A stretch of 39,944 bases of DNA from a virus, in UHGV virus genome UHGV-0147509. One strand, written 5' to 3'. The position numbers and the translations under genes were made by a program. Shown here in pieces: positions 1 through 39,944 of this stretch (positions within the stretch are counted from its first letter, which is position 1; every line of letters starts with the position of its first letter). The notes below the pieces were generated by a model. It searched no databases. It was given only the letters and a program-made list of their open reading frames with translations, and had not been told where the DNA came from.

Positions 1-2
1 TA

Positions 3-1868
3 ATGGCTAAAGCATGGAAAGATGTTATCGCCTCTCCACAGTATCAGGCGTTAACTGAAGAACAGAAAGCACAGGCTCAAGCGCAATATTTTGATGAGGT
101 TGTTGCCCCTAAGGCTGGTGACAAATGGGCTGAAGCAAGAGATCAGTTTTATGCAGCATACCCTCCGCATCAGCAGCAGAAAGAAGAACCATCATTGATG
201 CAACAAGCTGGCGATTGGCTCACAGGTGGTCAAAGTGCAGGGCAAATTGCAGAGCAGGCTGGTCGCGGTCTGGTAAACATACCATTTGACGTATTGCAGG
301 GTGGCGCAAGTCTGATTAATGCAATCAGCCAGGGGCTTGGTGGCCCCAAGGTTTTGGACGATGTCTATCGTCCAGTAGATCGACCAACAGACCCTTATGC
401 GCAAGCTGGAGAAACAATTGGCGGGTATTTAGTTCCAGGAGTTGGAACGGCAGGAAGCATGGCTATTGGATCACTGGCAGAGGCCGCAAATCAGAAAGGC
501 GATTTCGCACAAAATGCAGCTAAAAATGCCGGAGTTAACCTTGCCGCTCAGGGGGTTCTTTCCGCAGCAGCAAAGGGAATAGGGCGTGGAATTACTGCTG
601 TTCGTGGCGAAATATCACCAGCAGATCAGCAATTGCTCAAGCGTGCCGCTGCGGCAGATGTACCAGTTATGACATCGGATGTAGTTCCTCCAAAAACAAA
701 ACTTGGCAATCAACTGCAGGGTTACTCAGAAGGAGTCATAGCTGGTACTGGACCAATGAGAGCCGCACAGCAGGATGCCAGAACCAAGCTTGTTAATCGC
801 TTCACCGAAAAATACGGCGACTACGATCCATCTGTAGTCGTTGATAGTCTAAAGTCAGGCGTTGCAAGGGAAAAATCGTTAGCCAAGTCAAAACTAAACA
901 GCCTGTCAGGAAGAATGGTTGGAAAGCCAGTTGATACAAGTGGCGCCATAAGAGCTATCGACGGAGCAGTAAACGAACTTGGGAAACTTAAAGGTGTTTC
1001 TGACACCCAGACCATTTCTGCGCTTAATGATTATAAGAATGCCATTCAGGAGATAACAAATGGAGATGATGCCTTTGAGTTACTTGATAAGCTGAGAACT
1101 CAGTTCCGCATTGACGTAAAAGGCGATCGTACAGTTCTGCCATCAATGTCGCAAACAATGGTCGACAGGGTCTATAACTCGCTAACCAATAGCCTTAGTA
1201 AATCTATAGCGAAAGGACTTAGCCCAAAAGATGCTTCAGCATGGAGAGCGGGAAAAGCTGATTATGCAAAAATGGCAACACATGCAACTCAAACGCGCCT
1301 TAAAAACGTTCTAAACAAAGGAGATTTAACTCCCGAGGCTGTAAATACCATTGTGTATGGACAATATGGGTCAGATATAGCTCGATTGTACGGGAAACTC
1401 GATCAAAAAGGTAAAGACATGCTAAGGGCGGCATATATCAGCAAAATAGCTGACAAGGTAGGTGACAGCCCTCAGAAAATGATGACCGAGCTTGGCAAGC
1501 TGCAAAAACAAGCAAATGGTCAGGTGTTTAAAACTGTATTTGGTGGGAAGAACGGAAAAGAGATAGAGGGGATGTTATCTATTCTCGATGCTACCAAAAG
1601 AGCATCTGAGGCTAATGTTGTGACGAAGACTGGCATGACACTCGCGCCTTTGGTAAGGGTTATTGGTAACCTAAAAACCGGAGGCGCGCTATTGGCTGGG
1701 GAAACAGGGATTGGCCTTATGTCGAGGGTTTATGAAAGCCCTATGGCCAGGAATGCGCTCTTACGTCTGGCAAACACCAAAGCAGGAACGCTAGCCTATG
1801 AAAGAGCATTAAGTAACGCTGCAAATGCCATCAGACCGCTGCTTGCCACTGAGGCAACACAGCAGTGA
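3..1868 (+). CDS. 16: DNA ejection (injection) protein, P22 gp16-like
   Basis: 621-aa ORF; ATG at 3 overlaps TAA at 1-3 (TAATG junction with the preceding gene); last member of the gp14-gp7-gp20-gp16 syntenic block that wraps around the window ends. Confidence 0.7.
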   Translation: MAKAWKDVIASPQYQALTEEQKAQAQAQYFDEVVAPKAGDKWAEARDQFYAAYPPHQQQKEEPSLMQQAGDWLTGGQSAGQIAEQAGRGLVNIPFDVLQGGASLINAISQGLGGPKVLDDVYRPVDRPTDPYAQAGETIGGYLVPGVGTAGSMAIGSLAEAANQKGDFAQNAAKNAGVNLAAQGVLSAAAKGIGRGITAVRGEISPADQQLLKRAAAADVPVMTSDVVPPKTKLGNQLQGYSEGVIAGTGPMRAAQQDARTKLVNRFTEKYGDYDPSVVVDSLKSGVAREKSLAKSKLNSLSGRMVGKPVDTSGAIRAIDGAVNELGKLKGVSDTQTISALNDYKNAIQEITNGDDAFELLDKLRTQFRIDVKGDRTVLPSMSQTMVDRVYNSLTNSLSKSIAKGLSPKDASAWRAGKADYAKMATHATQTRLKNVLNKGDLTPEAVNTIVYGQYGSDIARLYGKLDQKGKDMLRAAYISKIADKVGDSPQKMMTELGKLQKQANGQVFKTVFGGKNGKEIEGMLSILDATKRASEANVVTKTGMTLAPLVRVIGNLKTGGALLAGETGIGLMSRVYESPMARNALLRLANTKAGTLAYERALSNAANAIRPLLATEATQQ

Positions 1869-1885
1869 CTAAATGCCATGGATGG

Positions 1886-2122
1886 TTATTTCCCTAGCAC
1901 ATGAAACAATGTTTGCTTTAATTCCACCCATACAATTATGACCACTATAGACAGACAAAAGAAACTGAATGCATTGGCATCACGATCGAAACCTTCTCCG
2001 GCACTAAATCCGTAAAAGGTCATAAAAAATATAAAAATTGCGCACTTTGCAACGTTTACAAATTTTTTCTTCACACCAACCTCCTTAGTTTTCCTAGCAG
2101 TGGCACTGAGTGAATGGAACAA
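1886..2122 (-). CDS. hypothetical small membrane protein (two predicted hydrophobic helices)
   Basis: 78-aa ORF with TTG start and no clear SD; hydrophobic stretches AIFIFFMTFYGF and FFCLSIVVIIVWV; AT-rich; last ORF of the minus-strand cassette downstream of mnt. Confidence 0.35.
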   Translation of the reverse strand: MFHSLSATARKTKEVGVKKKFVNVAKCAIFIFFMTFYGFSAGEGFDRDANAFSFFCLSIVVIIVWVELKQTLFHVLGK

Positions 2123-2143
2123 GAAGATAGCTGATGAGGTGAG

Positions 2144-2593
2144 CTAAAATATATATTTAGCTATCCCTAAAAGAGCAAATCCAGTCCCTATGGTCCATAG
2201 TATTTGCTTGTTTACTGCAGTAGAGATCAATGTCTGGACTTCGCTCTTACTCGGTTTTTTTGATAATTTTTCGTCTACATCTACTATTTTTTGCAGGACC
2301 ACCGCAACATCTCTGGATGTATCAGCTGAGATATCACGCAAACGAGAGATGTCAGACCTTGCCTCAGATAGATTGGTCTTAATGTTTTCAACATCTGCCT
2401 CTAACCGTGCAACCCTAGCCTCAAGCATGTTGTTACTCCCAGCTCCACCACCACTTGATTGTAGCATGCCCATATTCATGCCAGACATTCCTGATGACTG
2501 AGAAATTGGATTTGTGTACAAAGATGATGATTTTTCCGCTTGTTCAAGCTTTTCAGTTAGATTTGGAGCTTCGTAATAATCGTGTTTCATCAT
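2144..2593 (-). CDS. hypothetical tail-anchored coiled-coil membrane protein (XhlA-like architecture)
   Basis: 149-aa ORF, ATG start 3 nt after the upstream stop; Gly/Ser/Met-rich low-complexity segment, heptad-like LEARVARLEADVENIKTNL region, C-terminal hydrophobic helix ILWTIGTGFALLGIAKYIF; AT-rich. Confidence 0.6.
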   Translation of the reverse strand: MMKHDYYEAPNLTEKLEQAEKSSSLYTNPISQSSGMSGMNMGMLQSSGGGAGSNNMLEARVARLEADVENIKTNLSEARSDISRLRDISADTSRDVAVVLQKIVDVDEKLSKKPSKSEVQTLISTAVNKQILWTIGTGFALLGIAKYIF

Positions 2594-2596
2594 TGA

Positions 2597-2866
2597 TTAC
2601 GACTCGTTTGTTTTAGCCTTATAATGTTGGTCGCGAATGAAGTCCGCCAATTTAAGCATCAATTCTTCAGGCATTCTAATGGTGGCAATATTGTACTTTA
2701 TGTTTTCAACATCACCGCTTTCATCAACAGGCCATTCAGTTACATTATGAAAAAAAGAAATTGAACCTAATCGCTGGGAACCGTCACCAAATGAAGAGTA
2801 TCCAAATGAGTCAGCATATGCATCGACACAGTTATTTGATTTTTTAACAAGCTCTTTATTACTCAT
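2597..2866 (-). CDS. hypothetical protein
   Basis: ORF 2597..2881; internal ATG at 2866 gives an 8-nt overlap with the mnt stop (ATG at 2881 would overlap mnt by 23 nt); tightly packed with mnt and the downstream ORF. Confidence 0.5.
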   Translation of the reverse strand: MSNKELVKKSNNCVDAYADSFGYSSFGDGSQRLGSISFFHNVTEWPVDESGDVENIKYNIATIRMPEELMLKLADFIRDQHYKAKTNES

Positions 2867-3116
2867 TCTTTTCTTTTCCATAAAGTTTTTTTAAAGTTTC
2901 GAATACCATATTTTTTACGATATCCGAATGTTCATCAGCCAAGCGTTCAGCTTCGTTGCGATAGCCTGCAATCGGTGATGGCTTTGAGAGAGCATCCTGA
3001 ACGATTTGTAATAACTCAGAGTTCATTGACCTTCCGTTAGCCTCGGCTCTTAATTTCAATTTTTCTCTTACTTCCAAAGGCATACGGAAGTTAAAGTGCG
3101 GATCATCTCTAGCCAT
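2859..3116 (-). CDS. mnt: Mnt repressor (ribbon-helix-helix, immI maintenance repressor)
   Basis: 85-aa protein MARDDPHFNFRMPLEVREKLKLRAEANGRSMNSELLQIVQDAL closely matches recalled P22 Mnt; divergent from arc across the Pant/Omnt region. Confidence 0.9.
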   Translation of the reverse strand: MARDDPHFNFRMPLEVREKLKLRAEANGRSMNSELLQIVQDALSKPSPIAGYRNEAERLADEHSDIVKNMVFETLKKLYGKEKNE

Positions 3117-3138
3117 GCCATCACTCCAAGTTAGTGTA

Positions 3139-3190
3139 TTGACATGATAGAAGCACTCTACTATATTCTCAATAGGTCCACGGTGGACCT
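3139..3190. promoter_or_regulatory. Pant promoter with Arc operator and Mnt operator (immI control region)
   Basis: TTGACA at 3139-3144, 17-bp spacer, TATATT at 3162-3167; ATGATAGAAGCACTCTACTAT at 3144-3164 matches the recalled P22 arc operator; perfect palindrome AGGTCCACGGTGGACCT at 3174-3190 matches the recalled mnt operator. Confidence 0.8.
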
Positions 3191-3206
3191 ATATTGTGAG
3201 GTGAAC

Positions 3207-3365
3207 ATGAAAGGAATGAGCAAAATGCCGCAGTTCAATTTGCGGTGGCCTAAAGAAGTATTGGATTTGGTGCGCAAGGTAGCTGAAGAGAACGGGCGAT
3301 CTGTTAACTCTGAGATTTACAAGCGGGTGCTGGACAGCCTGAAGAGAGAGGGGATAACGGTATGA
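3207..3365 (+). CDS. arc: Arc repressor
   Basis: MKGMSKMPQFNLRWPKEVLDLVRKVAEENGRSVNSEIY is near-identical to recalled P22 Arc; the ORF-track start at 3144 lies inside the Pant/operator region and is rejected. Confidence 0.95.
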   Translation: MKGMSKMPQFNLRWPKEVLDLVRKVAEENGRSVNSEIYKRVLDSLKREGITV

Positions 3366-3631
3366 AGGTGTCATTGCTTGATCGTTCTTTACAATTTTTG
3401 TCTGGCGCAATCATTGTAGTTTGCTTGCTCGTGATTTTTACATCGTTAATCAATATGTATCAATCAGGGGAACGATTGACAAAGACGATAGAGGAAAAGA
3501 AATCAGTCTCAAATTACGAGGTATCACATGCACATAACGATTTAGTAGAAAGCCTTGACCGTATTAACAAGAGGCTTGACGAGACAAATATGCTACTTAA
3601 GCAAATTCAAAATGAAGTGGAAAAACGTTGA
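3362..3631 (+). CDS. hypothetical membrane/coiled-coil protein inserted between arc and ant
   Basis: 89-aa ORF; ATG overlaps the arc stop (ATGA); purine-rich SD-like run upstream; N-terminal hydrophobic helix [15 protein letters not shown] followed by a charged coiled-coil-like region; AT-rich. Confidence 0.6.
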
Positions 3632-3661
3632 AGCCCCAACTGCGGGAACAGTCAGGGCTTC
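3630..3661 (-). terminator. stem-loop with U-run on the minus strand (candidate terminator of an antisense sar-like RNA)
   Basis: GAAGCCC at 3630-3636 pairs with GGGCTTC at 3655-3661; on the minus strand the stem is followed by AACGTTTTT; lies just upstream of the ant ribosome-binding site. Confidence 0.35.
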
Positions 3662-3693
3662 GGTATCAACAAATCGGATTAGGAAATATTGAC

Positions 3694-4572
3694 ATGAAAA
3701 GTATAGCAAAGGCACAAAACGATTTCACCATCTTCAAATTCGGCGACAGTGAAATCCGCGTCATCAACAAGTGCGGTGAGCCGTGGTTTGTGGCAAAAGA
3801 TGTTTGTGATGCTTTAACTCTGACTAACTCACGCAAGGCGCTTACTGCACTTGATGACGATGAAAAGGGAGTAACTTTAAGTTACACCCTTGGTGGTGAG
3901 CAGAATCTAAGCATTGTTAGCGAATCAGGTATGTATACATTGGTTCTGCGCTGCCGCGATGCTGTCAATAAAGGTTCAGTCCCGCACAAATTCCGCAAGT
4001 GGGTAACAGCAGAAGTTCTGCCTTCGATTCGCAAACATGGAGAGTATGTGAAAGGCAAGAAAACCACTGTTGAGCAAAGAACACCGCTACGCGATGCAGT
4101 AAACATGCTGGTAGGAAAGAAAGGACTTCGCTATGACGATGCATACAATATGGTTCATCAGCGTTTTGGTATTGACAGCATTGATGAACTTTCAATTGAA
4201 CAAATCCCGCTGGCCGTAGAGTACATCCACAGGGTAGTGCTTGAAGGTGAGTTCATTGGCAAACAAGAGAAGAAAACCAACGAGCTTTCTGCAAAAGAAG
4301 CAAACAGCCTTGTATGGCTATGGGATTATGCTAACCGTTCACAGGCATTATTCCGCGAACTGTATCCGGCATTAAAACAAATTCAATCGAACTATTCCGG
4401 CAGATGCTACGACTACGGTCATGAATTCTCGTATGTTATCGGAATGGCGAGAGACGTTTTAATAAACCACACACGAGATGTTGATATTAATGAGCCAGAC
4501 GGACCAACGAATCTTTCCGCATGGATGAGACTTAAGAATAAAGAATTACCTCCTTCAGTTCATAACTACTGA
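3694..4572 (+). CDS. ant: antirepressor Ant (Bro-N/KilA-N-type N-terminal domain)
   Basis: ATG at 3694 preceded by AGGAAA; [30 protein letters not shown] is a typical Bro-N motif; position after arc; the ORF track extends to a TTG at 3628. Confidence 0.7.
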
Positions 4573-4672: not shown

Positions 4673-6661
4673 ATGACAGACATTACAGCCAATGTTGTAG
4701 TGAGCATGCCTTCGCAACTCTTCACTATGGCTCGTTCTTTTAAAGCTGTAGCTAATGGCAAAATTTATATCGGTAAAATTGACACTGACCCGGTAAATCC
4801 TGAAAACCAGATTCAGGTTTATGTGGAGAACGAAGACGGTTCTCACGTTCCTGTTGCACAGCCAATCATCATTAACGCCGCTGGTTATCCTGTATATAAC
4901 GGACAGATTGCCAAATTCGTTACCGTGCAAGGCCATTCTATGGCTGTTTATGATGCGTATGGGGCGCAGCAGTTCTATTTTCCGAATGTGCTAAAGTATG
5001 ACCCGGATCAGTTAAGAACCGAACTATCTATTAACGGTGGTGCCGGATTAGTTGGCGCAGGAGTTATATCTAGAGGTAATGATAAGTTTTCAATAATGCA
5101 GGGCAGGACATCAGAGTATTTAAATGATGGTCTTACATACGGTATTGGTATCATTATTAATGATTCAATTGTTGGTTCTGTTCCTAATGCAAGCACAGCT
5201 AAAATAAACTATATCATGATTAATGATGACAGAATTAATGCTGTTGATGACCAATCGGCAGGCACAAAAGTTGACGGGTTTTTAGTTCACCATAATTTCG
5301 GATATCAAGAAGCAAAAGGTGGCAGACACGCCGGAGAGTTTGTTTTAACTCACGAAGCAGCCACAAACTTAGAAAATCCTGATAGAAATTATGTTGGTGT
5401 TGTTGGTCTTGCGGTTTCACAAAATGGTGATGGTGGAACGATATCATCATTACCTGGTACATTCAAAGGAGCATATTTTGGCGGAAATATGTATGGACGC
5501 CTGGATTCTGCTGCGGTTGGAGTTTATAACGTTACAGGGTGTGAGTTTAATGTTTCCGCGTTAGTAGGTTCATCTGTATGGTATCGATCAGGTATTCAGA
5601 TTGTCGGTGGTGGTGATGTTCGAGGTACTGCTGTAGATACTGGTATTGCCTTATCAAACCTTTCTACTTCAACCGTTCGCTGGAAAAACGCTATTCGCAT
5701 AGGCAACATGAATGGGGGGCACGCCCTAGGAGGAGATAGTAAAATACTTGTTGCATTTACAGATGTGCCATCCATAACATCAGGATTCGAGATACCAAAA
5801 TGCTCATCAATGATATTGATGTCAGGTGACGTTACTTTACAAAATAGTAAATTGAATATCGCATCTGTTGGCTCATCTATTGAACTTGGTAGTACAACAG
5901 ATTCCGGTGTTTCATATATTGACTTTCACTCAAGCGGAAATAATGTTGATAACGATGGAAGGATTTTCTGTTCTGGTGGTTCTGAAGATTCTGGTGATGG
6001 GACTATTGGATTTAATTCTTCAATCATTCAACTTAACTCAAAAACAGAAATAGTCATGGGGTCTGGCATTAGACCATCTCTTGACAACACCTATGATTAT
6101 GGAACAGCTTCCAAAAGAGGAAGAACAGCGTATTTTGGTACCGGGTCAATTAATACATCTGACTCTCGCCATAAACCAATCAAAGAAAAAATACCAGAAT
6201 ATATTCTTGACGCGTGGTCAGAAGTAGACTGGGGGACATGGTTTAAATTTGATGACGCAATAGCGATAAAAGGAGAAGATGGTGCGAGATGGCACTTTGG
6301 ACTGATTGCGCAGCGTGTTGAAAAAGTTTTTTCATCACATGGAATAGATGGATTTAAGCTTGGCTTGCTATGTTATGACTCATGGGATGACGTTTACGTT
6401 GATGTGCAGACAAATATAGGGGAGGTGGTAAAAAAAACAAGAGAAACGAGCGATGGAAATACAGAAGAATATACTGAACCTGCCCCTGCAAAATTTAAAA
6501 AGGTTCTTGATACACCAGCTGGTGAAAGATACGGAATTCGTTATGAGGAGGCCTTGTCTCTCGAGGCTGCATTACAACGGCGTAACTACTTTCGTTTGCT
6601 GGAGAAACAAAAAGAGTTAGTTATGCGTATTGAGAAAATAGAGGGTATACTTGGAATGTAA
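4673..6661 (+). CDS. tailspike protein (P22 gp9-like head-binding N-terminus, divergent receptor domain, C-terminal intramolecular chaperone-like domain)
   Basis: N-terminus [43 protein letters not shown] closely matches recalled P22 gp9 head-binding domain; C-terminal region with SDSRHK motif resembles peptidase S74 auto-cleaving chaperone domains; SD GGAG upstream. Confidence 0.85.
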
Positions 6662-6795
6662 ATTTTATATATCACAGTATATCTAGACACATTATGTGTC
6701 ACTTACCTATATGAATGGCGTGGCAACAAAAACTGTGGCATATAAGCTTTGCACTGGATTGCAAGGCTTTGTGCTATTCGATAGTTTAAGGTCGC

Positions 6796-7953
6796 TCACT
6801 CTACCTTTTCATCAAGCCAGTCCGCCCACCATTGCATCATTTCTCTGCGTTTATCGAGATACTGAGCATGGTTGTAAATCCCACGCACAGATCCGCCGTT
6901 GGCATGTGCCAGTTGCACTTCAATGGCGTCAGCAGGCCATTCGTGCTCGTTCATAATTGTGCTGAATTCATGCCTGAATCCGTGACCGCTTTCCAGACCC
7001 TCATAGCCGATTTGTTTGATCACAAGCAATACCGCGTTCTCGCAGATTGGCTTCTTCTTATCGTTGCGCCCGGCAAAAACAAACTCTGATACTGGTTTAG
7101 TGATGGAGCTTAGCGTAATGAGAAGTTCAACTACCTGGTCTGACATAGGAACCACATGAATTTTGCGTCCCTTCATCACATTGGCGTCGATGGTGATAAT
7201 CCTGTTTTCAAAATCGACGTTCTTCCATTGCATGGAACGAAGCTCTTTCGTTCTTAGGGCTGTGTAGCGTAAAACTTTGGTCGCAATGAGCGATACGATA
7301 CTTCCTGAAAATGTTGCCAGTGCTTTGTTGAATGCCGGGATCTGGTCTGCAGGAAGAAACGGGAAGTTCTTCTTGCGGTATCCCTTCATGGCGTCAGCAA
7401 GGTCAGGTGCCGGGTTATATTTAGCCCTTCCGGTGACAATAGCGTAACGGAAAACCTCTCCGCATCTTCTGCGTGCTTTGTTGGCTCGCTCCATTGCACC
7501 GCGATCTTCAAATCTGCGGATTACTTCCAGCAGTTGCATCGGCTCAATATCCTGAATTTCAAGGCCGCCGATGATAGGTAAAATGTCGTCATCAAACATT
7601 TTTGCAAGTTCATTTGCATATCCTACTGACCAGACTTGCTTCTTGTGCTCGTACCATTCCTTGTAAATGGCGCTAAAGGAATTGTTGTTAGACGAAGCCT
7701 TTTTCGCCTTTACCGGATCGATGCCGACTGAGATCTCTTTCCTCGCAGTCCATGCTTTATCCCTTGCCTCCTGCAAAGTCATAAGCGGATATTTTCCGAC
7801 GGTCAGGATTTTCTCCTTACCGTCAATCTTGTAGCGAAGCTGCCAGACCTTTTTTCCGGATACAGGGACATAAAGGTACAGGCCATTACCATCGAGAAGG
7901 CGGTATGGTTTTTCTTTCGGCTTTGCTGCTTCAATCTGCTTAACGGTGAGCAT
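6796..7953 (-). CDS. int: tyrosine integrase, P4 family
   Basis: N-terminus MLTVKQIEAAKPKEKPYRLLDGNGLYLYV is a typical P4-type arm-binding region; C-terminal HGFRHEF and RGIYNHAQY catalytic motifs; ATG at 7953 preferred over the upstream GTG at 7989. Confidence 0.9.
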   Translation of the reverse strand: MLTVKQIEAAKPKEKPYRLLDGNGLYLYVPVSGKKVWQLRYKIDGKEKILTVGKYPLMTLQEARDKAWTARKEISVGIDPVKAKKASSNNNSFSAIYKEWYEHKKQVWSVGYANELAKMFDDDILPIIGGLEIQDIEPMQLLEVIRRFEDRGAMERANKARRRCGEVFRYAIVTGRAKYNPAPDLADAMKGYRKKNFPFLPADQIPAFNKALATFSGSIVSLIATKVLRYTALRTKELRSMQWKNVDFENRIITIDANVMKGRKIHVVPMSDQVVELLITLSSITKPVSEFVFAGRNDKKKPICENAVLLVIKQIGYEGLESGHGFRHEFSTIMNEHEWPADAIEVQLAHANGGSVRGIYNHAQYLDKRREMMQWWADWLDEKVE

Positions 7954-8202
7954 GGGTAAAAATCCGGTGGGTAAAATTATTTTATCCACTTTTTACCCGT
8001 CATGGTGTGCGGCTGTCAACGATCTGACGCGAACCATGCCGAACTGTGAATCTACGGAAGGCTTGATATTCAGGGGATTTCGCGGACTGGTACGGATGGG
8101 AGCGAACTGATAAATGGTGTCCCCTGCAGACATCTACTTGACGAGGCAGGGGATTGATTGGAATGGTGTTTTTTAGATGTGAGAAATATTTTACCCGCTA
8201 TT

Positions 8203-8403
8203 TTACCCATTGGCGCGGCTTAAAAGCTTATTCTTGAATTCACAATGGTCACGATATAACCATCTTGCTCGCCCGTGGATAACTTTGGCTTTTGGCAGGT
8301 CGCCGGACTTAATCCGGTCGTAGATGAAGGTTTTACCAAAGCCAGTATCAGCCATGATGAATTTCAAATCAACCAGGGAATCAGGCTGTAGTTCGTGTTG
8401 CAT
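8203..8403 (-). CDS. xis: excisionase / AlpA-like DNA-binding protein
   Basis: 66-aa ORF immediately upstream of int on the same strand; GRARWLYRD-type motif typical of AlpA/Xis family proteins. Confidence 0.65.
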   Translation of the reverse strand: MQHELQPDSLVDLKFIMADTGFGKTFIYDRIKSGDLPKAKVIHGRARWLYRDHCEFKNKLLSRANG

Positions 8404-12042: not shown

Positions 12043-12426
12043 TCAGAATGGGATGGAATCGTCGTATACAGGAGTGTTCTGCTGGTTACTACTTTGCTGC
12101 TGCGGGCCATTTCCTGAAGCTGCAAATCCAATCTTTGCATTCAGTAATTCAAGAGTGATTGATTGACCATTTTGCCCCTGATAAACATCAACCCTGATGT
12201 TTTCTCCGGTAATTTCAACAATGCCACCTTCAACAAGAACACTACGGTAGTAATCCACTTGCGCTCCCGGCTTGGCAAATACAACGGCGCTGTAGTTTGT
12301 CCATTCTTTCTTTTTTGTCTGGCGATCGTAATACTGAACGCCAGCACGGATGTTGAATCCGATATTTTCCCCGGCCTGAAACTCTCTTGCGGGCTTGTTT
12401 AGTCTTACAGTAATCGAATGTGCCAT
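12043..12426 (-). CDS. ssb: single-stranded DNA-binding protein-like
   Basis: ATG at 12426 overlapping the erf stop; C-terminal acidic tail ...PVYDDSIPF typical of SSB; the N-terminal OB-fold region is divergent. Confidence 0.6.
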   Translation of the reverse strand: MAHSITVRLNKPAREFQAGENIGFNIRAGVQYYDRQTKKKEWTNYSAVVFAKPGAQVDYYRSVLVEGGIVEITGENIRVDVYQGQNGQSITLELLNAKIGFAASGNGPQQQSSNQQNTPVYDDSIPF

Positions 12427-13031: not shown

Positions 13032-13120
13032 ATGTTTGTTCTCAGAATGGGCATGGCCCAAGGAAATAACGCTGATTTAATACTTCAGTCTTTGCCGCAT
13101 TTAAAAAGACGCGAACACCT

Positions 13121-25262: not shown

Positions 25263-25586
25263 ATGAAGATGCCAGAAAAACATGACCTGTTAGCCGCCAT
25301 TCTCGCGGCAAAGGAACAAGGCATCGGGGCAATCCTTGCGTTTGCAATGGCGTACCTTCGCGGCAGATATAATGGAGGTGCGTTTACAAAAACAGTAATC
25401 GACGCAACGATGTGCGCCATTATCGCCTGGTTCATTCGTGACCTTCTCGACTTCGCCGGACTAAGTAGCAATCTCGCTTATATAACGAGCGTGTTCATCG
25501 GCTACATCGGTACTGACTCGATTGGTTCGCTTATCAAACGCTTCGCTGCTAAAAAAGCCGGAGTAGAAGATGGTGGAAATCAATAA
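25263..25586 (+). CDS. S: holin/antiholin S (lambda S-type, class I holin)
   Basis: 107-aa protein [36 protein letters not shown] matching recalled lambda S, including the dual-start Met1/Met3 arrangement. Confidence 0.9.
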
Positions 25587-28078: not shown

Positions 28079-28501
28079 ATGGCGACTGAACCAAAAGCTG
28101 GTCGCCCCTCTGATTATATGCCGGAGGTGGCTGACGATATCTGCTCGTTGCTTTCTTCTGGCGAAAGTTTGCTGAAAGTATGTAAGCGTCCTGGTATGCC
28201 GGATAAGTCCACTGTTTTCCGCTGGCTGGCAAAGCATGAGGATTTTCGCGACAAGTACGCGAAGGCAACTGAGGCACGAGCTGATTCTATTTTCGAAGAG
28301 ATATTCGAAATTGCTGACACTGCGATTCCAGATGCTGCTGAGGTGGCAAAGGCAAGACTTCGCGTTGATACCCGCAAATGGGCGCTGGCCCGAATGAATC
28401 CCCGTAAGTATGGCGACAAGGTAACTAACGAGCTTGTCGGTAAGGACGGCGGCGCAATCCAGATTGAAACATCACCGATGAGCACTCTGTTCGGAAAATG
28501 A
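28079..28501 (+). CDS. terminase small subunit (Sf6 gp1-like)
   Basis: 140-aa protein MATEPKAGRPSDYMPEVADDICSLL matches recalled Sf6 small terminase; directly upstream of and overlapping the large terminase. Confidence 0.8.
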   Translation: MATEPKAGRPSDYMPEVADDICSLLSSGESLLKVCKRPGMPDKSTVFRWLAKHEDFRDKYAKATEARADSIFEEIFEIADTAIPDAAEVAKARLRVDTRKWALARMNPRKYGDKVTNELVGKDGGAIQIETSPMSTLFGK

Positions 28502-29914: not shown

Positions 29915-32113
29915 ATGGCAGAAAAAAAGATGACTGACTGGCATCGCAAGGTGCTGTGCAACTTTGATAATGCCTGGTCAGCAACGCAGGATATGCGTGA
30001 GCAGATTATTGAGGCTCAACGTTTCGTCCGGGTGTCCGGCGCACAGTGGGAAGGCAGCACAAACGCTGGTTACTCATTTGATGAAGGCAGGTTTGAGCAT
30101 TACCCGCGCTTTGAACTGAATAAGATTGCCCGTGAATGTGATCGCATCATTGGCGAGTATCGACAGAATCGCATCAGCGTTAAATTCAGGCCGAAGGACG
30201 ATAAGGCATCGGAAGCGTTAGCCGAAAAGATGAATGGTAAATTCCGCGCTGACTATCAGGAAACATCCGGTGGTGAAGCGTGTGATAACGCATTTGATGA
30301 TGCTGTAACGGGCGGATTCGGTTGTTTCCGCATGTGTGCCGATTACGAAGATGAAATGGATCCGAGTAACGAGCAGCGACGCATCAGCCTTCTTCCTGTT
30401 TACGACCCAGCGACATGCGTCTTCTTCGATCAGGACAGCAAGCAATATGACCGCTCTGATGCTATGTGGGCTATGGAAATGTTCTCCATGACGCCTAAAG
30501 CGTTCGAGGCTGAATACCCTGATTCCATCGCAGCAAGCCTTTCTCGTGATGACACTGGCACTCAATATGACTGGTCAACGCCAGATGCCATCTATGTTGG
30601 GCGCTACTACGAAGTTCGCATAGAGAAGGTGAAGCTCACGGCATGGCGCAACCCTGTTAGCGGAGAAACGGCAATCTATGATGAAGATCAAATCAAAGAT
30701 ATTGTCGATGAGCTAACCGATGGTGCATTCGAACTGATCGGTGAGCGGACGGTGAAGAAACGCAGAGTTTATTGCGGTCTTCTGTCTGGCGCTGAATGGC
30801 TGGAAGAACCTAAGCGTATTCCTGGCGAACATATTCCTCTCATCCCGGTATATGGGCGTCGTTCATTTGTTGATAATCAGGAGCGAATCGAAGGCCACGC
30901 AGCAAAAGCGATGGATGCACAGCGTCTTGAGAACCTGATGGTTTCCATGATTGCAGATAACGCTACTCAGGCTGGCGGTGATGGCATTCCTATCGTGGAT
31001 GTTGATTTCATTCCCGGTCCATTAATGAATCACTGGGCAGAGAGGAATAAGAAAAGACCTGCAGTTCTTCCCATGACCAGCAAGAAGGACAAAAACGGAA
31101 CGGTCATTTCAGAGGCTCAGGTTGCTGGCTGGACACCTCCGACACAAATGCCTCCTGCTCTTGCCGGGCTATTGCAGTACACCGGAACGGCTATTCAGCA
31201 AATTACAGGTGCGTCGCAGCTTGAGAACATGCCGAGCAACGTCGCTACCGATACCGTTGATAGCATCTTTAATCGGATGGACACGCAGTCCTATATCTAC
31301 ATGGACAACATGGCTAAATCCATGCGCCGTGCTGGCGTCGTGTGGCTTTCTATGGCTCGTGAAGTCTATGGCAGCGATACGCCAATGCGCATCGTTAATG
31401 AGGACGGCAGCGATGACGTGGCGCTGATGACTGGTGAAGTGGTTGACCGTCAGACAGGGCAGGTTATCGCGCTTAACGACCTTTCGCAGGGTAACTATGA
31501 AGTGACTGTCGATGTCGGTCAGTCGTTCGCTACTCGCCGTGATGCAACGGTTAAGTCGTTACTTTCCATGCTGGCACTTATCCCACCAGGAACGCCGAAG
31601 CACGACCTTGTATCGTCGATGATTCTCGACAATATGGATGGCGAAGGGATGGACGACCTGAAAGAATACAACCGCAATCAGTTGCTTCTGTCTGGCGTTA
31701 TCAAGCCGAGAACGCCTGAAGAACAGCAGATGGTTGAACAGGCGAAACAACAACAGGCCAGTCAGCCAGATCCGGCTATGGTTGCAGCGCAAGGTCAGCT
31801 TCTTGCTGGTCAGGCTGAATTGCAGAAAGCGCAGAACGAACAGGCAGCCATTCAGGTTAAAGCATTCCAGGCACAGACTGATGCTCAGGTTGCAGCGGCA
31901 AATGTTGTGAAAATACTCGCATCTGCCGATAGCCAGCAGAAATCTGATATCCGCGAGGCTCTGAAACTGCTCGGACAGTTCCAGCAACAGCAAGGAGACA
32001 ATGCCCGTGCTGATGCAGAGCTTGTCCTGAAAAGTCAGGCACAGGGCCATGCGCAGCGCATGGACATCAGCAGCATCCTGCAAAAATCAACCCGGCAACA
32101 ACCACAGCAGTAA
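29915..32113 (+). CDS. portal protein (P22 gp1-like)
   Basis: 732-aa ORF directly after terminase; size, position and Gln-rich C-terminal barrel-like tail consistent with P22-like portal. Confidence 0.9.
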   Translation: MAEKKMTDWHRKVLCNFDNAWSATQDMREQIIEAQRFVRVSGAQWEGSTNAGYSFDEGRFEHYPRFELNKIARECDRIIGEYRQNRISVKFRPKDDKASEALAEKMNGKFRADYQETSGGEACDNAFDDAVTGGFGCFRMCADYEDEMDPSNEQRRISLLPVYDPATCVFFDQDSKQYDRSDAMWAMEMFSMTPKAFEAEYPDSIAASLSRDDTGTQYDWSTPDAIYVGRYYEVRIEKVKLTAWRNPVSGETAIYDEDQIKDIVDELTDGAFELIGERTVKKRRVYCGLLSGAEWLEEPKRIPGEHIPLIPVYGRRSFVDNQERIEGHAAKAMDAQRLENLMVSMIADNATQAGGDGIPIVDVDFIPGPLMNHWAERNKKRPAVLPMTSKKDKNGTVISEAQVAGWTPPTQMPPALAGLLQYTGTAIQQITGASQLENMPSNVATDTVDSIFNRMDTQSYIYMDNMAKSMRRAGVVWLSMAREVYGSDTPMRIVNEDGSDDVALMTGEVVDRQTGQVIALNDLSQGNYEVTVDVGQSFATRRDATVKSLLSMLALIPPGTPKHDLVSSMILDNMDGEGMDDLKEYNRNQLLLSGVIKPRTPEEQQMVEQAKQQQASQPDPAMVAAQGQLLAGQAELQKAQNEQAAIQVKAFQAQTDAQVAAANVVKILASADSQQKSDIREALKLLGQFQQQQGDNARADAELVLKSQAQGHAQRMDISSILQKSTRQQPQQ

Positions 32114-32203
32114 TTAACCCATAACGTGCAATGGCTGTCTTTATGAGGCCTGGCACCCTATTGCCTTCCGATGGGCTGAACATCGAGTAAACAGGGGTAA
32201 CAA

Positions 32204-33097
32204 ATGGACCAGATGGCAGAAAACACACCAGAAGTTGAAATCGAAACCGACGCGTCAGAGCAGATTCCTGATGATGTCGAACTGGCTGAAGAAGTCGAAA
32301 CAGAAGATGGCAGTGAGTCCTCCGGCAATGATGCAGAGGAAGCTACTGAAACTGATGACGACGAATCAGAACAGGAATTCTACTTTGGTGAAGAAAAGCT
32401 GGATTCGCCAACCAGCGAAGATGGCGCAGAGCATGGACTGGTAAAACACCTGCGCAAGACGATTAAAGAGAAAGACCGCGAGCTGAAAGAGCTGATGCGT
32501 CAGTCTCAGAAATCCGTCGAGCAGCAGCCGGTAATCACTCAACCACCGCGAATGCCAAAACTGGACGATGAGGACATCGGTTTCGATGAAGAAATCTACC
32601 AGCAACGCATGGCTAAGTGGGCAGAGGATAACGGCAAGTACCAGCAACAGGAGATGGCTCGCAAGCAGAAGGAGCAGGAGCTTCATGCTGCTTATCAAGA
32701 GCGATTATCCAAATATCAGCAACGTGTTAAGGCTCTCAAGGTTCCTGGCTATCAGGAAGCAGAACAGGCCGTACTCGAGGAAATCCCCATCGAGACACAA
32801 AACGCGATCCTGTTTGAGTCAGAGAAGCCGGAAATCGTTGTTCTGGCGCTTGGTCGCAACGCTGAACTGCGCAAGCAACTGGCAGAAGCTACCAACCCCG
32901 TAGCAATTGGTCGTCTGCTGGAACGTATCGAATCTAAGGCCAGAATCATGCCAAAAGCAAAAACCACGGCAGCCACAACCCCGACAGTTAAGGGGAGCAA
33001 CGGCGCAGTAATCAACAACCTCGACAAATTGAAAGCCAAGGCGCTGGAAACTGGTGACTGGACGCCGTATTTCGCCGCTAAAAAGGCAAAAAAATAA
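32204..33097 (+). CDS. scaffolding protein (P22 gp8-like)
   Basis: 297-aa highly charged, acidic N-terminus, coiled-coil-rich protein between portal and coat. Confidence 0.8.
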   Translation: MDQMAENTPEVEIETDASEQIPDDVELAEEVETEDGSESSGNDAEEATETDDDESEQEFYFGEEKLDSPTSEDGAEHGLVKHLRKTIKEKDRELKELMRQSQKSVEQQPVITQPPRMPKLDDEDIGFDEEIYQQRMAKWAEDNGKYQQQEMARKQKEQELHAAYQERLSKYQQRVKALKVPGYQEAEQAVLEEIPIETQNAILFESEKPEIVVLALGRNAELRKQLAEATNPVAIGRLLERIESKARIMPKAKTTAATTPTVKGSNGAVINNLDKLKAKALETGDWTPYFAAKKAKK

Positions 33098-33115
33098 CCT
33101 ATCGGAGCATTAAGC

Positions 33116-34369
33116 ATGGCTAACCAATTAGCAAAAGACCTTGAAATCATGTTCGAAAACTACGTTGAAGGCTTTGAGGCCGCCTGCGTAGTTTCCCGTA
33201 ACGCTAAAAAATTCCGTCCCGGTGATACAGCAATGCAGCGAGCAGGTGATGTTCTGTATCGTCCGCAGCATTACCACATGAACATTGAGGAAGGCCTAGA
33301 TCTCAGCGGCAAAACGCCAACAGCACTGGTTCAGCGCCTTGTTCCTTCTGTGTTCAAGGAGCCGAAAAACATTCTGTACACTCTGGATGCGCGTGAAATG
33401 CGTGACCCGGAACATAAAACTGAAGCTGGTCGCGCCGCAGGTATGCGCCTTGCTGCACAGATTGACTCTGACCTGATTTCCATGGTCACGCAGCGTGCTA
33501 CTAACGTGATCACAATGGCTGACTCAACCACTGGTTCACAGGGCCGTGATTTGTGGAACTGTGCGGCAGGTATTGATGCCACCATGACGGCGATTGGTGT
33601 ACCACAGGGTATCAACCGTCGCTCTTTCTGGAACCCCTTCAACTACAAAGACCTTGCTGGCGAGCTTGGTCACCGTGCCTACGCTCAGGGCGCAACCCTG
33701 ACAGCATACGAAAAAGCGCAGATCCCTCCGGTTGCTTCCTTTGATAGCTACAAGACCGATATTTCTGGTCGATTACCGAAAGGAAGCGCTGAATCCTTGA
33801 CAGTATCAGGCCAACCTGAACACAAGGTTGAAGCGAAAGATTCAAATGGTATGCCAGTTGATAACCGACAGGGGACTATTACGGTATCTGCATCTGGCTT
33901 GCAGGTTGGTGATGCGTTCACCATTGCCGGTGTGAATTCCGTACACCAGATCACAAAAGATACCACCGGGCAACCGCAGGTATTCCGTGTTCTGGCTGTT
34001 AGCGGAACTACCGTAACAATCTCTCCAAAGATTCTCCCTGTTGAAAATACCGATGTTGCGAGTCGTCCATATGCAAACGTCGATGCCAAACCGGCAGAAT
34101 CAGCAGCAATCACCATTCTCAACAAGAACGCAGCACCTGCTAACCTGTTCTGGGCTGATGGTTCTGTTGAGCTGATGTACGGCAAACTAGCGTTCCCGAC
34201 TGGTCAGGGTCCACAGGTAATGACAGCAACCACCGAGCAGGGCGCTACGCTGATCATGTCTTACGCCTTCGACCACATCAAAGGCGTAACCACTGCTCGT
34301 TTCACCACTCTGTACGGTTGCTCTGTACTTGTTCCTGAATATACGGGCATCGTTATAGCTGGGCAGTAA
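33116..34369 (+). CDS. major coat protein (P22 gp5-like)
   Basis: 417-aa ORF following scaffold, followed by a strong terminator; size and synteny. Confidence 0.85.
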   Translation: MANQLAKDLEIMFENYVEGFEAACVVSRNAKKFRPGDTAMQRAGDVLYRPQHYHMNIEEGLDLSGKTPTALVQRLVPSVFKEPKNILYTLDAREMRDPEHKTEAGRAAGMRLAAQIDSDLISMVTQRATNVITMADSTTGSQGRDLWNCAAGIDATMTAIGVPQGINRRSFWNPFNYKDLAGELGHRAYAQGATLTAYEKAQIPPVASFDSYKTDISGRLPKGSAESLTVSGQPEHKVEAKDSNGMPVDNRQGTITVSASGLQVGDAFTIAGVNSVHQITKDTTGQPQVFRVLAVSGTTVTISPKILPVENTDVASRPYANVDAKPAESAAITILNKNAAPANLFWADGSVELMYGKLAFPTGQGPQVMTATTEQGATLIMSYAFDHIKGVTTARFTTLYGCSVLVPEYTGIVIAGQ

Positions 34370-34374
34370 TTTTG

Positions 34375-34399
34375 GTGGGGCTTCGGCCCCATTTTTATT
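34375..34399 (+). terminator. rho-independent terminator after the coat gene
   Basis: GGGGC-TTCG-GCCCC hairpin at 34377-34390 followed by ATTTTTATT. Confidence 0.8.
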
Positions 34400-34410
34400 G
34401 GGAGAAGACA

Positions 34411-34599
34411 ATGGCACGAACAATGCTCTATAAGCCGGGCAACATGATCACCTGTGGTCAGTTTGCTGTCGATTACATCATTGTTGATGACGAAGAAGTT
34501 AAATCTCACCTGAAAAAAGGCTGGGTAAAAACTCCTGAAGAAACCGCAACGAAGCATAAAGTGGCTAAGGCGGAAGAAGATGGCGAAAACGAAGGGTGA
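34411..34599 (+). CDS. hypothetical small protein
   Basis: ATG at 34411 downstream of the coat terminator (track start 34372 overlaps the terminator hairpin). Confidence 0.4.
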   Translation: MARTMLYKPGNMITCGQFAVDYIIVDDEEVKSHLKKGWVKTPEETATKHKVAKAEEDGENEG

Positions 34600-35041
34600 T
34601 CTCGTTCTTAAGGCTTTACGAAAAGCCGGGCTGTATTCCAATGCCACGTTGACAGATGCTGACCCTCAGGCAATTGAAGATGCCATTAATGACCTCGAAG
34701 ACATGATGGCAGCATGGCAGGCTAAAGGTATCGAGCTTGGGTATCAGTTTGCTGATACAGAAAACGGCATCATGCCGTTACCTGACGATGATTCAGGTAT
34801 CCCTGCATGGGCAAATGATGGCGTAGCTTTGAAACTCGCTGTGCAAGTGTGCATGGATAACGTCATTCAGCCGTCAGACGCTCTCCTTACCGCTGCTGAC
34901 AGTGCATATCAGACAATCTGTATCGCTTTAACCAAAATACCACCACTTGAGCGGCGAAATGACATGCCTCGCGGTAGTGGTAACAAAAGCGCGTTTACGT
35001 GGAATCGGTTTTACATCGAGAAAGATGATCCGAGTACGTGA
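34580..35041 (+). CDS. head completion / tail accessory protein (P22 gp4-like)
   Basis: 153-aa ORF in the gp4 position of the P22-like order 4-10-26-14-7-20-16. Confidence 0.7.
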   Translation: MAKTKGDLVLKALRKAGLYSNATLTDADPQAIEDAINDLEDMMAAWQAKGIELGYQFADTENGIMPLPDDDSGIPAWANDGVALKLAVQVCMDNVIQPSDALLTAADSAYQTICIALTKIPPLERRNDMPRGSGNKSAFTWNRFYIEKDDPST

Positions 35042-35050
35042 GGTGAATAA

Positions 35051-36469
35051 ATGCCGATTCAGCAACTTCCGCTTATGAAAGGTGTCGGCAAAGATTTCAG
35101 AAACGCCGACTATATCGACTATCTGCCAGCGAATATGTTGGCTACACCCAAAGAAATACTCAACAGCAGCGGATATCTTCGCTCATTCCCGGGCATTGCC
35201 AAACGTTCTGACGTGAACGGCGTATCGCGAGGCGTCGAGTACAACATGGCGCAGAATGCTGTATATCGCGTGTGTGGCGGCAAGCTGTACAAAGGAGAAA
35301 GCGAAGTCGGTGACGTCGCCGGAAGTGGTCGCGTATCAATGGCGCATGGTCGAACATCTCAGGCGGTAGGCGTTAATGGTCAACTGGTCGAGTATCGTTA
35401 TGATGGCACGGTTAAAACCGTCTCAAACTGGCCTACAGACAGCGGATTCACGCAGTATGAGTTAGGCTCAGTCCGCGACATTACGCGCTTACGTGGGCGT
35501 TATGCGTGGTCAAAAGACGGTACTGATTCATGGTTTATCACTGACCTTGAAGACGAATCTCATCCTGACCGTTACAGCGCACAATATCGCGCAGAATCGC
35601 AGCCTGACGGCATCATCGGCATCGGAACATGGCGAGACTTCATCGTCTGCTTTGGTTCATCGACGATTGAATATTTTTCCCTGACTGGTGCAACCACCGT
35701 TGGTGCCGCTTTGTATGTCGCACAGCCATCACTGATGGTGCAGAAAGGCATTGCCGGGACTTACTGCAAAACGCCATTCGCTGATTCTTATGCGTTCATC
35801 AGCAATCCGGCAACAGGTGCGCCGTCTGTGTATATCATCGGCTCCGGGCAGGTGTCACCAATCGCCAGCGCGAGCATTGAGAAAATACTACGCTCCTACA
35901 CTGCTGATGAACTGGCTGATGGCGTGATGGAATCGCTGCGGTTTGATGCGCATGAGTTGCTGATTATCCATCTTCCGCGTCACGTCCTCGTGTATGACGC
36001 ATCTTCAAGCGCCAATGGTCCGCAATGGTGTGTGCTGAAAACAGGCCTGTATGACGATGTGTACCGCGCTATCGACTTCATTTACGAAGGCAATCAGATA
36101 ACGTGCGGCGATAAGCTGGAATCGGTGACCGGGAAATTGCAATTCGATATCAGCAGCCAGTACGACAAGCAACAGGAACATCTGCTGTTTACTCCGTTGT
36201 TCAAAGCGGATAACGCCAGAGTTTTCGACCTTGAGGTTGAATCGTCAACTGGCGTTGCGCAGTACGCTGACCGCCTGTTCCTCTCTGCAACCACTGACGG
36301 CATCAATTACGGGCGTGAGCAGATGATTGAGCAGAATGAACCGTTCGTTTACGACAAGCGCGTTTTGTGGAAGCGAGTCGGGCGCATCAGGAAAAATGTT
36401 GGCTTCAAATTGCGCGTTATCACGAAGTCACCTGTAACTCTGTCTGGCTGCCAGATAAGGATTGAGTAA
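35051..36469 (+). CDS. tail hub protein (P22 gp10-like)
   Basis: 472-aa ORF, same length as P22 gp10, in the syntenic position. Confidence 0.75.
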
Positions 36470-37422
36470 TGGCTGATTCGAATCTCAATGAGCCAGTAAT
36501 CATCCAGGCTACGCGGCTCGATACATCAGTCCTTCCACGCAATATCTTCTCTCAGTCGTATCTGCTTTACGTTATTGCACAGGGTACTGATGTTGGTAAT
36601 GTGGCTAACAAGGCCAACGAAGCAGGGAAGGGGGCTTATGATGCACAGGTGAAGAATGATGAGCAGGATGTCACCCTTGCAGACCATGAATCCAGAATTG
36701 AAACTGCTGAAGCAACTCTCATCAATCATGAACATAGAATCTCAGCAGCGGAAAGCACTCTTGCAGATCATGAAACAAGGATTACGGCTGCCGAAACAGA
36801 GCTGGCTGATCACGAGACGCGAATTGCTGCCAATGAATCTGAGTTAGCAAACCATGATGCGCGAATAACTCAGAATACAACCGATATCAACGCACTTGAT
36901 ACCAGGCTCACAGCGGCAGAGGGAAGTATTTCGACGCTACAAAGCACAGTTGGTGATCACTCAACAAGAATATCTGCGCTTGAGTATGCCACCACGCGCA
37001 AGAAATCAGAGGTTGTTTACTCAGGAGTATCGGTAACCATTCCAACAGCGCCGACCAACCTTGTTAGCCTGCTGAAAACGCTCACGCCGTCATCCGGGAC
37101 GTTGGCACCATTCTTCGATACTGATAACAACAAGATGGTTGTTTTCAACGAGAACAAAACCCTGTTCTTCAAGCTGTCGATTGTCGGGACGTGGCCCAGC
37201 GGAACCGCCAACAGGTCAATGCAGCTAACATTCTCCGGTTCTGTTCCTGATACGCTGGTCAGCAGTCGTAATGCGGCGACAACAACCGACAACATCCTGT
37301 TAGCTACGTTCTTCAGCGTGGATAAAGACGGATTTCTTGCCACAAATGGCAGTACGTTAACCATCCAGTCAAATGGTGCGGCGTTTACTGCCACAACCAT
37401 CAAAATCATTGCGGAGCAGTGA
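36469..37422 (+). CDS. tail needle protein (P22 gp26-like) with extended C-terminal domain
   Basis: N-terminus [53 protein letters not shown] closely matches recalled P22 gp26; heptad repeats (ADHETRI...); 317 aa versus about 233 in P22. Confidence 0.85.
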
Positions 37423-37877
37423 TGATTCAGTTCAAACCAACGCGAAACATCGACCTGATCGAAGCAGTCGGAAATCACCCTGACATTATTGCCGGGAGCA
37501 ACAACGGTGATGGATACGACTACAAACATGATTGCCGTTACTTTGAGGTGAACGTGCACGGGCAGTTCGGCGGCATTGTTTACTATCAGGAGATTCAGCC
37601 GCTGACATTCGATTGCCACGCCATGTACCTGCCAGAGGTTCGTGGATTCAGCAAGGAAATCGGGCTGGCGTTCTGGCGATACATTTTGACCAACACCACC
37701 GTTCAGTGCGTCACATCATTTGCTGCACGCAAATTCCGCCACGGTCAGATGTACTGCGCAATGATTGGCCTTAAGCGTGTAGGAACCATCAAGAAATACT
37801 TCAAAGGCGTGGATGACGTGACTTTTTACAGCGCAACACGCGAAGAACTAATCGACTTCCTGAATCACGGGAGATAG
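37419..37877 (+). CDS. virion assembly protein (P22 gp14-like)
   Basis: 152-aa ORF in the gp14 position; overlapping start/stop with neighbours. Confidence 0.6.
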
Positions 37878-37879
37878 CC

Positions 37880-38572
37880 ATGTTATATGCATTTACGCTG
37901 GGCAGAAAACTGCGCGGCGAGGAACCTTATTGCCCTGAAAAAGGCGGGAAAGGTGGCAGCTCTGATAAAAGCGCAAAGTATGCAGCAGAAGCTCAGAAGT
38001 ATGCTGCAGACCTGCAAAATCAGCAGTTCAACACCATCATGAACAACCTGAAGCCGTTTACTCCTCTGGCTGATAAGTATGTCGGCAGCCTCGAGAACTT
38101 ATCGTCTCTGGAAGGGCAAGGTCAGGCACTTAACCAGTATTACAACTCTCAGCAGTACAAAGATCTTGCTGGTCAGTCTCGCTATCAGAGTCTGGCGGCA
38201 GCGGAAGCAACAGGTGGATTGGGTTCCACTGCAACCGGTAATCAGTTAGCAACAATCGCACCAACGCTTGGTCAGCAGTGGCTGTCTGGTCAGATGAACA
38301 ACTACCAGAATCTGGCAAACGTTGGGCTTGGTGCTCTGCAAGGTCAGGCAAACGCAGGGCAGACATATGCCAACAACATGAGTCAGATTTCGCAGCAAAG
38401 TGCGGCTCTTGCAGCGGCAAATGCCAACAGACCATCAGCAATGCAATCTGCTATTGGCGGAGGTGCGTCTGGTGCTATTGCTGGGGCCGGACTTGCGAAA
38501 TTAATTGGTTCATCAACTCCGTGGGGGGCTGCGATCGGCGGCGGTCTTGGTCTGCTTGGCTCGTTGTTTTAA
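37880..38572 (+). CDS. ejection protein (P22 gp7-like)
   Basis: 230-aa ORF (P22 gp7 is about 229 aa) in the syntenic position; Gly/Ala-rich C-terminus. Confidence 0.7.
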   Translation: MLYAFTLGRKLRGEEPYCPEKGGKGGSSDKSAKYAAEAQKYAADLQNQQFNTIMNNLKPFTPLADKYVGSLENLSSLEGQGQALNQYYNSQQYKDLAGQSRYQSLAAAEATGGLGSTATGNQLATIAPTLGQQWLSGQMNNYQNLANVGLGALQGQANAGQTYANNMSQISQQSAALAAANANRPSAMQSAIGGGASGAIAGAGLAKLIGSSTPWGAAIGGGLGLLGSLF

Positions 38573-38582
38573 GGGGTAATCA

Positions 38583-39944
38583 ATGGCTACGTGGCAACAG
38601 GGTATTAATTCTGGTGGTTTTCTGGCTGGCATCGGTACGCAAAATGAGAATGCGCCAAAGGCAAGCGACATTAACGCAACGCTTGGTCTGATCCGCGAAA
38701 ACAATGAACTGGCTCGCTCAGGTGTAAATAACGTTGGCCTGACCGCGTTACGTGGTCTGGCTGGAGTTGCTGATATTTACAATCAGGAACAGCAACAGAA
38801 AGCTATTAGTGCGTTCAATAAGGTTCACGCTGATGCATGGGCTTCTGGTGATCCATCGGGACTATTTAAGTTTGCCAAGGAAAATCCAGCGTTTGTTGCA
38901 CAGGCACAACAGGCGTTTTCCGGTCTTAATGAACAGCAACGCAACGATATGGGCGATTTAGCCATGAGGGCTAACGTCGCTCTTTCTCAGGGACCGGAAG
39001 CCTACAGTAAATTCATTACTGATAACAAGGACAGGTTAAATAGCGTTGGTGCTAATGCTGACTGGATGATTCAGACAGGTATCCAGAATCCAGAGCAGCT
39101 ATCACACATGCTGACTACTATGTCTCTCGGTGCGCTTGGACCAGAAAAGGCGTTTGCTGTTCAGGATAAGATGGCTGGTCGTGAAATTGACCGAGGCAGG
39201 CTGGCAGAGACAATCCGCAGCAATCAGGCTGGCGAGGCGCTAACAGCGCGTGGTCAGAATATCACGATGCGCGGTCAGGATTTATCGATGCAGAGAGCAT
39301 CAATGAAAGGGGCGGTTGGGAATAATGAGCGTACAGTTCAGTTAGCAGATGGCAGAACTGTAACGGTAGGCGGGAAGCTTCACGGCGCTGGGGCTAATGC
39401 GTTCTACGAAGGTATCGACAACGAGGGGAATATGGTTCGCGTTCCTGCTGGCTCTATTGCCGCTCCGGCTACATCGGCAGCAAGTGCGCAGAATTACGCA
39501 ATGAAGAAAGATCTTGATGCAATTTCTGGTGCATCAATTGACGATCTTGGCTTCATGACTGGCATTACAGGCTCTTCAGGTTCTCCTGCTCTTGGTGCAG
39601 ATATTCGTAGCCGTGCATCTGGTGGTGATCAGAGGAAACTATACAACGCTGCACAGCGAATCCAAGGAAAGATGCAGAATCAGGGCATTGCAGCAGCCAG
39701 AGACATGGGGGCATCCGGTATCAACACCGTTGCAGAAGCAAAGATGTATTTTCAAGGTATGCCACAGGTTGATTTCTCAAGCCCTGAAGCACTGCAACAA
39801 TCAATGCGCGACATTCAGCAATATACCGACAATTACAACCAACAATATAACGTTAATGTTGGTAAATCTCAGCGGCAGCAATCTCAACCTACACAGGTAT
39901 CACAGCCAGCAGCCGGCAGTAACTTTTCTTCACTATGGGGTGAT
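38583..39944 (+). CDS. ejection protein (P22 gp20-like), 3' end beyond the window
   Basis: ATG at 38583; open frame runs to the window end with no stop; expected length about 470 aa, so roughly 55 nt are missing; the stop presumably corresponds to the TAA at window positions 1-3. Confidence 0.7.

Follow-up and report, generated by a model that had tools for sequence, protein, structure and literature searches.

In P22 and ST104, the packaging and virion genes are arranged in the order 3-2-1-8-5-4-10-26-14-7-20-16, followed by an immI region comprising mnt, arc, sar and ant, and then by gene 9, the tailspike gene. In Kapi1, as in Sf6, HK620 and KplE1, the phage attachment site attP lies between int and xis, and the published att site of Kapi1 comprises 17 bp (PMC8787464); the core of KplE1 comprises 16 nt, CTGCAGGGGACACCAT (PMC2951348). 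Sf6 is an experimentally established headful packager with terminal redundancy (PMC5630979). Here we analyse the virus genome record UHGV-0147509, a stretch of 39,944 nt (the window), the two ends of which meet at gene 20. An earlier note on this DNA had taken the window to be a near-complete, permuted phage genome that wraps within gene 20 and lacks about 55 nt. We find instead that the window is almost certainly one whole, exactly closed genome of a temperate P22-like Escherichia phage, 39,944 bp in length, in excised form and arbitrarily opened, with nothing missing and nothing duplicated. Three features were used to assess membership in the P22-like group, and the window has all three: the P22-like order of the virion operon (that is, the order of P22 and ST104 given above), an immI region between gene 16 and the tailspike gene, with mnt, arc, sar and ant in that order, and a P22/Sf6-type head-binding domain in the tailspike. 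The P22-like modules are each present once (PHROGs, Rfam). By its sequence, the phage is a P22-like Lederbergvirus of the Sf6/HK620/Kapi1 type.

The ends of the window fall at the junction of genes 20 and 16, which comprises:

38583-39944, plus strand: gene 20 (ejection protein), 454 sense codons, PHROG 917, with its stop codon at window positions 1-3
1-3, plus strand: stop codon TAA of gene 20, overlapping gene 16 by 1 nt, an overlap likewise annotated in JEP4 (at 12001) and DE17
3-1868, plus strand: gene 16 (DNA transfer/ejection protein), PHROG 770, E=5e-242

As the earlier note had said, gene 20 begins at 38583 and runs off the 3' end of the window: its open reading frame (ORF) starts with an ATG, has AAGGGG just before it, and continues in frame and without a stop for 1362 nt, or 454 codons, to base 39944. 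The window then opens TAATGG, so that, again as had been said, it starts with a TAA that overlaps the start of gene 16, the ATG at 3-5 (ORF of 621 amino acids) sharing the last A of the TAA at 1-3. Joining the end of the window directly to its start, with zero bases added, yields a 454-codon gene 20 that ends at the TAA at 1-3, and the sequence across the join reads TGGGGTGAT up to the last base and TAATGGCTAAAG from the first. The gene order 14-7-20 and then 16 across the ends is borne out by PHROGs matches to gp14, gp7, gp20 and gp16 in sequence. The description of the window as wrapping within gene 20 is right in that the two ends are neighbours on a circle, but the break separates GAT, the final sense codon, from the stop codon TAA.

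The direct join is found, to the base, in other genomes. A 570-nt junction probe, consisting of the final 270 and the initial 300 bases of the window, aligns as one 570-nt piece in phages, with 99.5% identity in JEP4 and 99.1% identity in phiv205-1; it is 99.6% identical in several E. coli prophages, is at least 80% covered in 39 genomes, and has matches in 1095 of 5426 E. coli genomes. A 43-nt string spanning the join has exact matches in at least 120 independent IMG/VR contigs; in contigs that share it, the ORF upstream is between roughly 414 and 488 codons long. In JEP4, the gene 20 homologue (gene 12) is 1365 nt long with its stop codon and is followed, with a 1-nt overlap, by an 1866-nt gene 16; the lengths here are the same, and the homologues in the DE17 prophage are identical to those of JEP4 in both lengths and in the overlap. 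In a protein alignment, the gene 20 product shows 98-99% identity with its homologues in JEP4 and DE17 along its whole length, and it aligns to phrog_917 (annotated as P22 gp20 type, 'released from the phage upon host infection') with E=5e-210, residues 1-454 on profile positions 1-504 of 509; a search of the PDB returned no sequence relative of gp20. The initial and final 3 kb of the window share no repeat longer than 15 nt, and hence contain neither an untrimmed overlap nor a direct terminal repeat. Because the two ends fit to the base, the window represents a circular or circularly permuted record in full and not a cut from a chromosome.

The integration module and the neighbouring tailspike gene are internal to the window, as the earlier note had also reported:

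4673-6661, plus strand: tailspike (gene 9), with a P22/Sf6-type head-binding domain (residues 1-119) followed by a rare receptor-binding part
6796-7953, minus strand: IntS-type tyrosine integrase, 385 amino acids when read from the ATG at 7953 (GTG at 7989 for the longest ORF), PHROG 1
8113-8129, no strand assigned: attP common core AATGGTGTCCCCTGCAG, 17 bp, matching the 3' end of tRNA-Arg argW in reverse complement
8203-8403, minus strand: xis, a TorI-like recombination directionality factor, 66 amino acids, PHROG 66 excisionase

The integrase has the Pfam domains Arm-DNA-bind_3, Phage_int_M and Phage_integrase, and the excisionase has no match in Pfam. At the DNA level, int and xis are about 96-97% identical to genes annotated as intS and torI, respectively, and the xis homologue is annotated torI in DE17 and FXCREC035. 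Matches to E. coli chromosomes that begin in int end at window position 8129, inside an annotated tRNA-Arg gene, and homologous intS genes adjoin tRNA-Arg argW in SCZE5 and 19SZHZ803Rt. The 17-bp core was defined by three-way alignment of the window attP, the SCZE5 attL and the DE17 attR: the window matches attL to the left of the core and attR to the right of it. (The prophage of 19SZHZ803Rt was set aside for att mapping as a truncated remnant, and DE17 and SCZE5 were used. In 19SZHZ803Rt (NZ_CP080066, 1442-1464 kb), IS903B truncates this related argW prophage inside the terminase gene, and emrK is disrupted at the opposite side; the entire virion operon is retained.) The core is identical to the published Kapi1 att site (PMC8787464) and contains the KplE1 core (PMC2951348). 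The window thus has each component of the argW module of KplE1, HK620, Sf6 and Kapi1: an IntS-type integrase, a TorI-type factor, and an argW core between the two genes. An integrating genome would recombine into tRNA-Arg argW at its 3' end, and the resulting prophage would carry int at one end and xis at the other.

The integrated form of a relative shows this arrangement. In DE17, the order runs from dsdC through attR and torI, then terminase, 14-7-20-16 and tailspike, to intS. When the window is rotated to the attP core, it is colinear with DE17 (BLAST) from the dsdC/attR boundary to intS, and a single 4,621-bp alignment, with 97.2% identity, spans the junction of window end and window start. 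In the prophage form, the window ends come to lie in the interior, just as attP does in the window; the arrangement is therefore that of the excised phage. The attP is intact and there are no host genes at the window ends, on either side, in agreement with the earlier note's reading of a vegetative arrangement and not an integrated prophage with host flanks.

The packaging and virion genes run from 28079 across the junction to 1868, in the order small terminase subunit, large terminase subunit, portal, scaffold, coat, gp4, gp10, gp26, gp14, gp7, gp20 and gp16, and upstream of gene 20 comprise (PHROGs):

28079-29913, plus strand: Sf6-type terminase, small subunit 28079-28501 (140 amino acids) and large subunit 28498-29913 (471 amino acids)
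29915-38572, plus strand: virion assembly operon, with portal, scaffold, coat, gp4, gp10, tail needle with knob (gp26), gp14 and gp7
37419-37877, plus strand: gp14-type head morphogenesis gene
37880-38572, plus strand: gp7 DNA ejection gene

The small subunit is identical to Sf6 gp1 at 139 of 140 residues (PDB 4dyc), and the large subunit is near-identical to Sf6 gp2 (PDB 4idh; 1049 bits). Since the terminase is essentially that of Sf6, headful packaging is expected, with a pac site that would lie in or near the small-terminase gene. Concatemers would be cut by headful packaging starting near that gene; each head would take up a little over one genome length, so that the packaged molecules would be circularly permuted and terminally redundant; and such molecules would assemble as a circle without natural ends. 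The window opens some 8 kb away from attP and, measured downstream from the terminase genes, at a distance of about 11.5 kb. The opening point is neither pac nor att, and the ends of the window are without biological meaning.

According to the earlier note, some 55 nt, that is, some 16 codons of gene 20, are missing between the end and the start of the window, and joining the two should close gene 20 at about 470 codons. The estimate arose because the length of a P22-type Salmonella gp20 was assumed: the ST104 gene is 1437 nt long and encodes 478 amino acids, and gene 20 does vary, from about 414 to 488 amino acids, among relatives. When the join is made, however, gene 20 closes at 454 codons, as in JEP4 and DE17. 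The direct join exactly matches many independent phages and prophages; the closest homologues also have 454 residues; the match to PHROG 917 comes within 5 positions of the end of the profile; and the C-terminal nine residues, SNFSSLWGD, are unchanged in four homologues, including the 478-residue ST104 protein, which is 81% identical to the protein here and whose surplus consists of internal indels around residues 205-250 and is not C-terminal. We consider a 55-nt gap highly improbable. Equally improbable is an origin of the window as an integrated prophage or chromosomal fragment from which the host flanks were cut away. The intact integration module and the abundance of close relatives as argW prophages (the E. 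coli genomes matched by the junction probe) speak for such an origin, but a prophage would be bounded by att cores and have int and xis at its opposite ends, as in DE17 and SCZE5, where dsdC and argW lie outside, whereas the window has no att-bounded ends, has int and xis side by side around an internal attP, and ends inside the virion operon; moreover, the two ends of a cut from a chromosome would not fit each other to the base.

Two points weigh against the conclusion that the window is a complete genome opened at an arbitrary position. The case for physical circularity, for headful packaging and for terminal redundancy is drawn from sequence and not from direct observation. In addition, the break sits exactly on a gene boundary, which a random cut would do with a chance of about 0.16% (an estimate, based on some 65 gene ends among 39,944 positions). 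Given that chance, the origin of the linear record was probably set by a rule of software or curator; it is very unlikely that an opening exact to the codon marks a real, fixed DNA end. A further question is the source of the circle, which may have been excised or episomal DNA in the assembly of a lysogen instead of virion DNA, a source that we regard as possible but not probable. Kapi1 was first recovered as a separate circle in an E. coli assembly (PMC8787464), and E. coli assemblies contain P22-like 'plasmid' replicons of about 39 kb in which int, attP and torI are contiguous (CP081778 and CP081786, 39,448 bp each). However, virion DNA and lysogen circles would give the identical sequence, which favours neither, and no matching record turned up in the E. 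coli and plasmid collections. With either source, the window would be the same complete, excised genome.

Compared with described phages, the genome combines a familiar late half with a different early region. JEP4, phiv205-1, Kapi1, CUS-3 and HK620 have the same order of virion genes as the window and are 95-96% identical to its late half over 50-86% of the length, with phiv205-1 covering 86%, and Kapi1 matches the window in its argW int-attP-xis module as well as in the core. In contrast, the early region of the window is a different mosaic, with HK022/HK633-like modules (the best phage cover of the initial 25 kb is 39%, by HK022), and the receptor-binding part of its tailspike is unrelated at the DNA level to those of the same five phages. 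Sf6 resembles the window in both terminase subunits, in the family of its recombination module (PMC2951348) and in the tailspike head-binding domain, but only 29% of the initial 25 kb of the window aligns with Sf6, at 96% identity, the tailspike specificity differs, and neither an oac gene nor IS911 was seen in the window. P22 and ST104, the likeness of which in gene order is set out above, differ in that the terminase of the window is of Sf6 type and its attP, flanked by int and xis, targets argW. With the exception of phiv205-1 in the late half, coverage of a 25-kb piece of the window stays below 80% for every phage in INPHARED, plasmid in PLSDB and complete E. coli genome. Known E. coli phages match the DNA of the window in patches, typically at 95-97% identity. 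Such patchy identity is the usual mosaicism of lambdoid phages. The genome, as judged from these comparisons, is a new mosaic, absent from the collections searched, within a known phage group. A mosaic boundary is also visible at the junction itself, at window positions 39934-39944, some 10 nt before the stop codon of gene 20: HK620 and CUS-3 reach 98-99% identity only from position 260 of the 570-nt probe, indicating that they share gene 16 and not the end of gene 20.

Only the tailspike of the window is mildly out of the ordinary. Its residues 1-119 match the N-termini of the tailspikes of Sf6 (7sg7, gene 14 protein, E=4e-65) and P22 (2vky, 8tvr), and its DNA-level match to known phages is limited to this head-binding domain (nt 1-345). 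For the remainder, the best match to a phage protein is 58% (EcoPhCCP1), and residues from about 422 to 642 resemble an endosialidase-type C-terminal chaperone domain (PDB 3gw6). The DNA from 5033 to 6728 occurs in one of 5,426 complete E. coli genomes, Z0117EC0117, at 99.9% identity, in a different P22-like prophage located between ybhC and ybhB, the lambda attachment site. An exact 45-mer from the centre of the tailspike gene is absent from IMG/VR and from GTDB representative genomes. It is possible, though not probable, that the phage represents an undescribed mosaic species, the tailspike of which might be directed at a surface polysaccharide not known to be recognised by any P22-like phage.

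The remaining regions are those of a temperate phage of this group, and were identified by PHROGs matches except where indicated:

1886-2881, minus strand: three small ORFs (78, 149 and 94 amino acids) between gene 16 and mnt, with PHROG matches of unknown function
2859-4572, no strand assigned: immI region (PHROGs, Rfam and reading of the sequence)
2859-3116, minus strand: mnt-like Arc-family gene
within 3144-3365, plus strand: arc
3362-3631: 89-residue ORF between arc and ant, phrog_27312, to which no function is assigned
3626-3692, minus strand: sar antisense RNA (RF00262 in Rfam, with 67.8 bits where the gathering score is 43)
3696-4572, plus strand: ant, from the ATG at 3696, with sar just upstream of the ATG
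12043-13061, minus strand: early-left recombination genes, ssb 12043-12516 (PHROG 44) and erf 12426-13061 (PHROG 155)
16114-20046, no strand assigned: immC and replication region, with a cI-like repressor on the minus strand
17253-17549: cII
17721-18620: O, with iteron-like repeats at 18108-18208 inside
18595-20046: DnaB-like helicase
21023-21613: HNH endonuclease ORF in the nin region, inserted upstream of ninB (phrog_99, E=1e-74)
23963-24586, plus strand: late regulator Q
25263-26480, plus strand: lysis cassette, holin 25263-25586, endolysin 25570-26046 and Rz 26043-26480

The three ORFs at 1886-2881, which have no match in Pfam, occupy the place of sieA/hkcC in P22 and of YafO toxin genes in related prophages, and are possible superinfection-exclusion or defence cargo. 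The direct repeats inside O are 35-nt units that contain ACCAGCAGATTACCAGCAAATTACCAC and are probably the replication origin. Eight small or unknown ORFs are without a match in Pfam, and no tRNA genes were found in the window.

A complete phage genome in permuted form is a routine and ordinary finding; its main value is one of bookkeeping, and it touches no open question. The record can be used as a complete genome, and gene 20 is to be annotated across the origin, as a protein of 454 residues, and not as a truncated gene. For mosaic phages such as these, the length of a gene in a distant reference, here gp20 of P22/ST104, is a poor guide to missing sequence.

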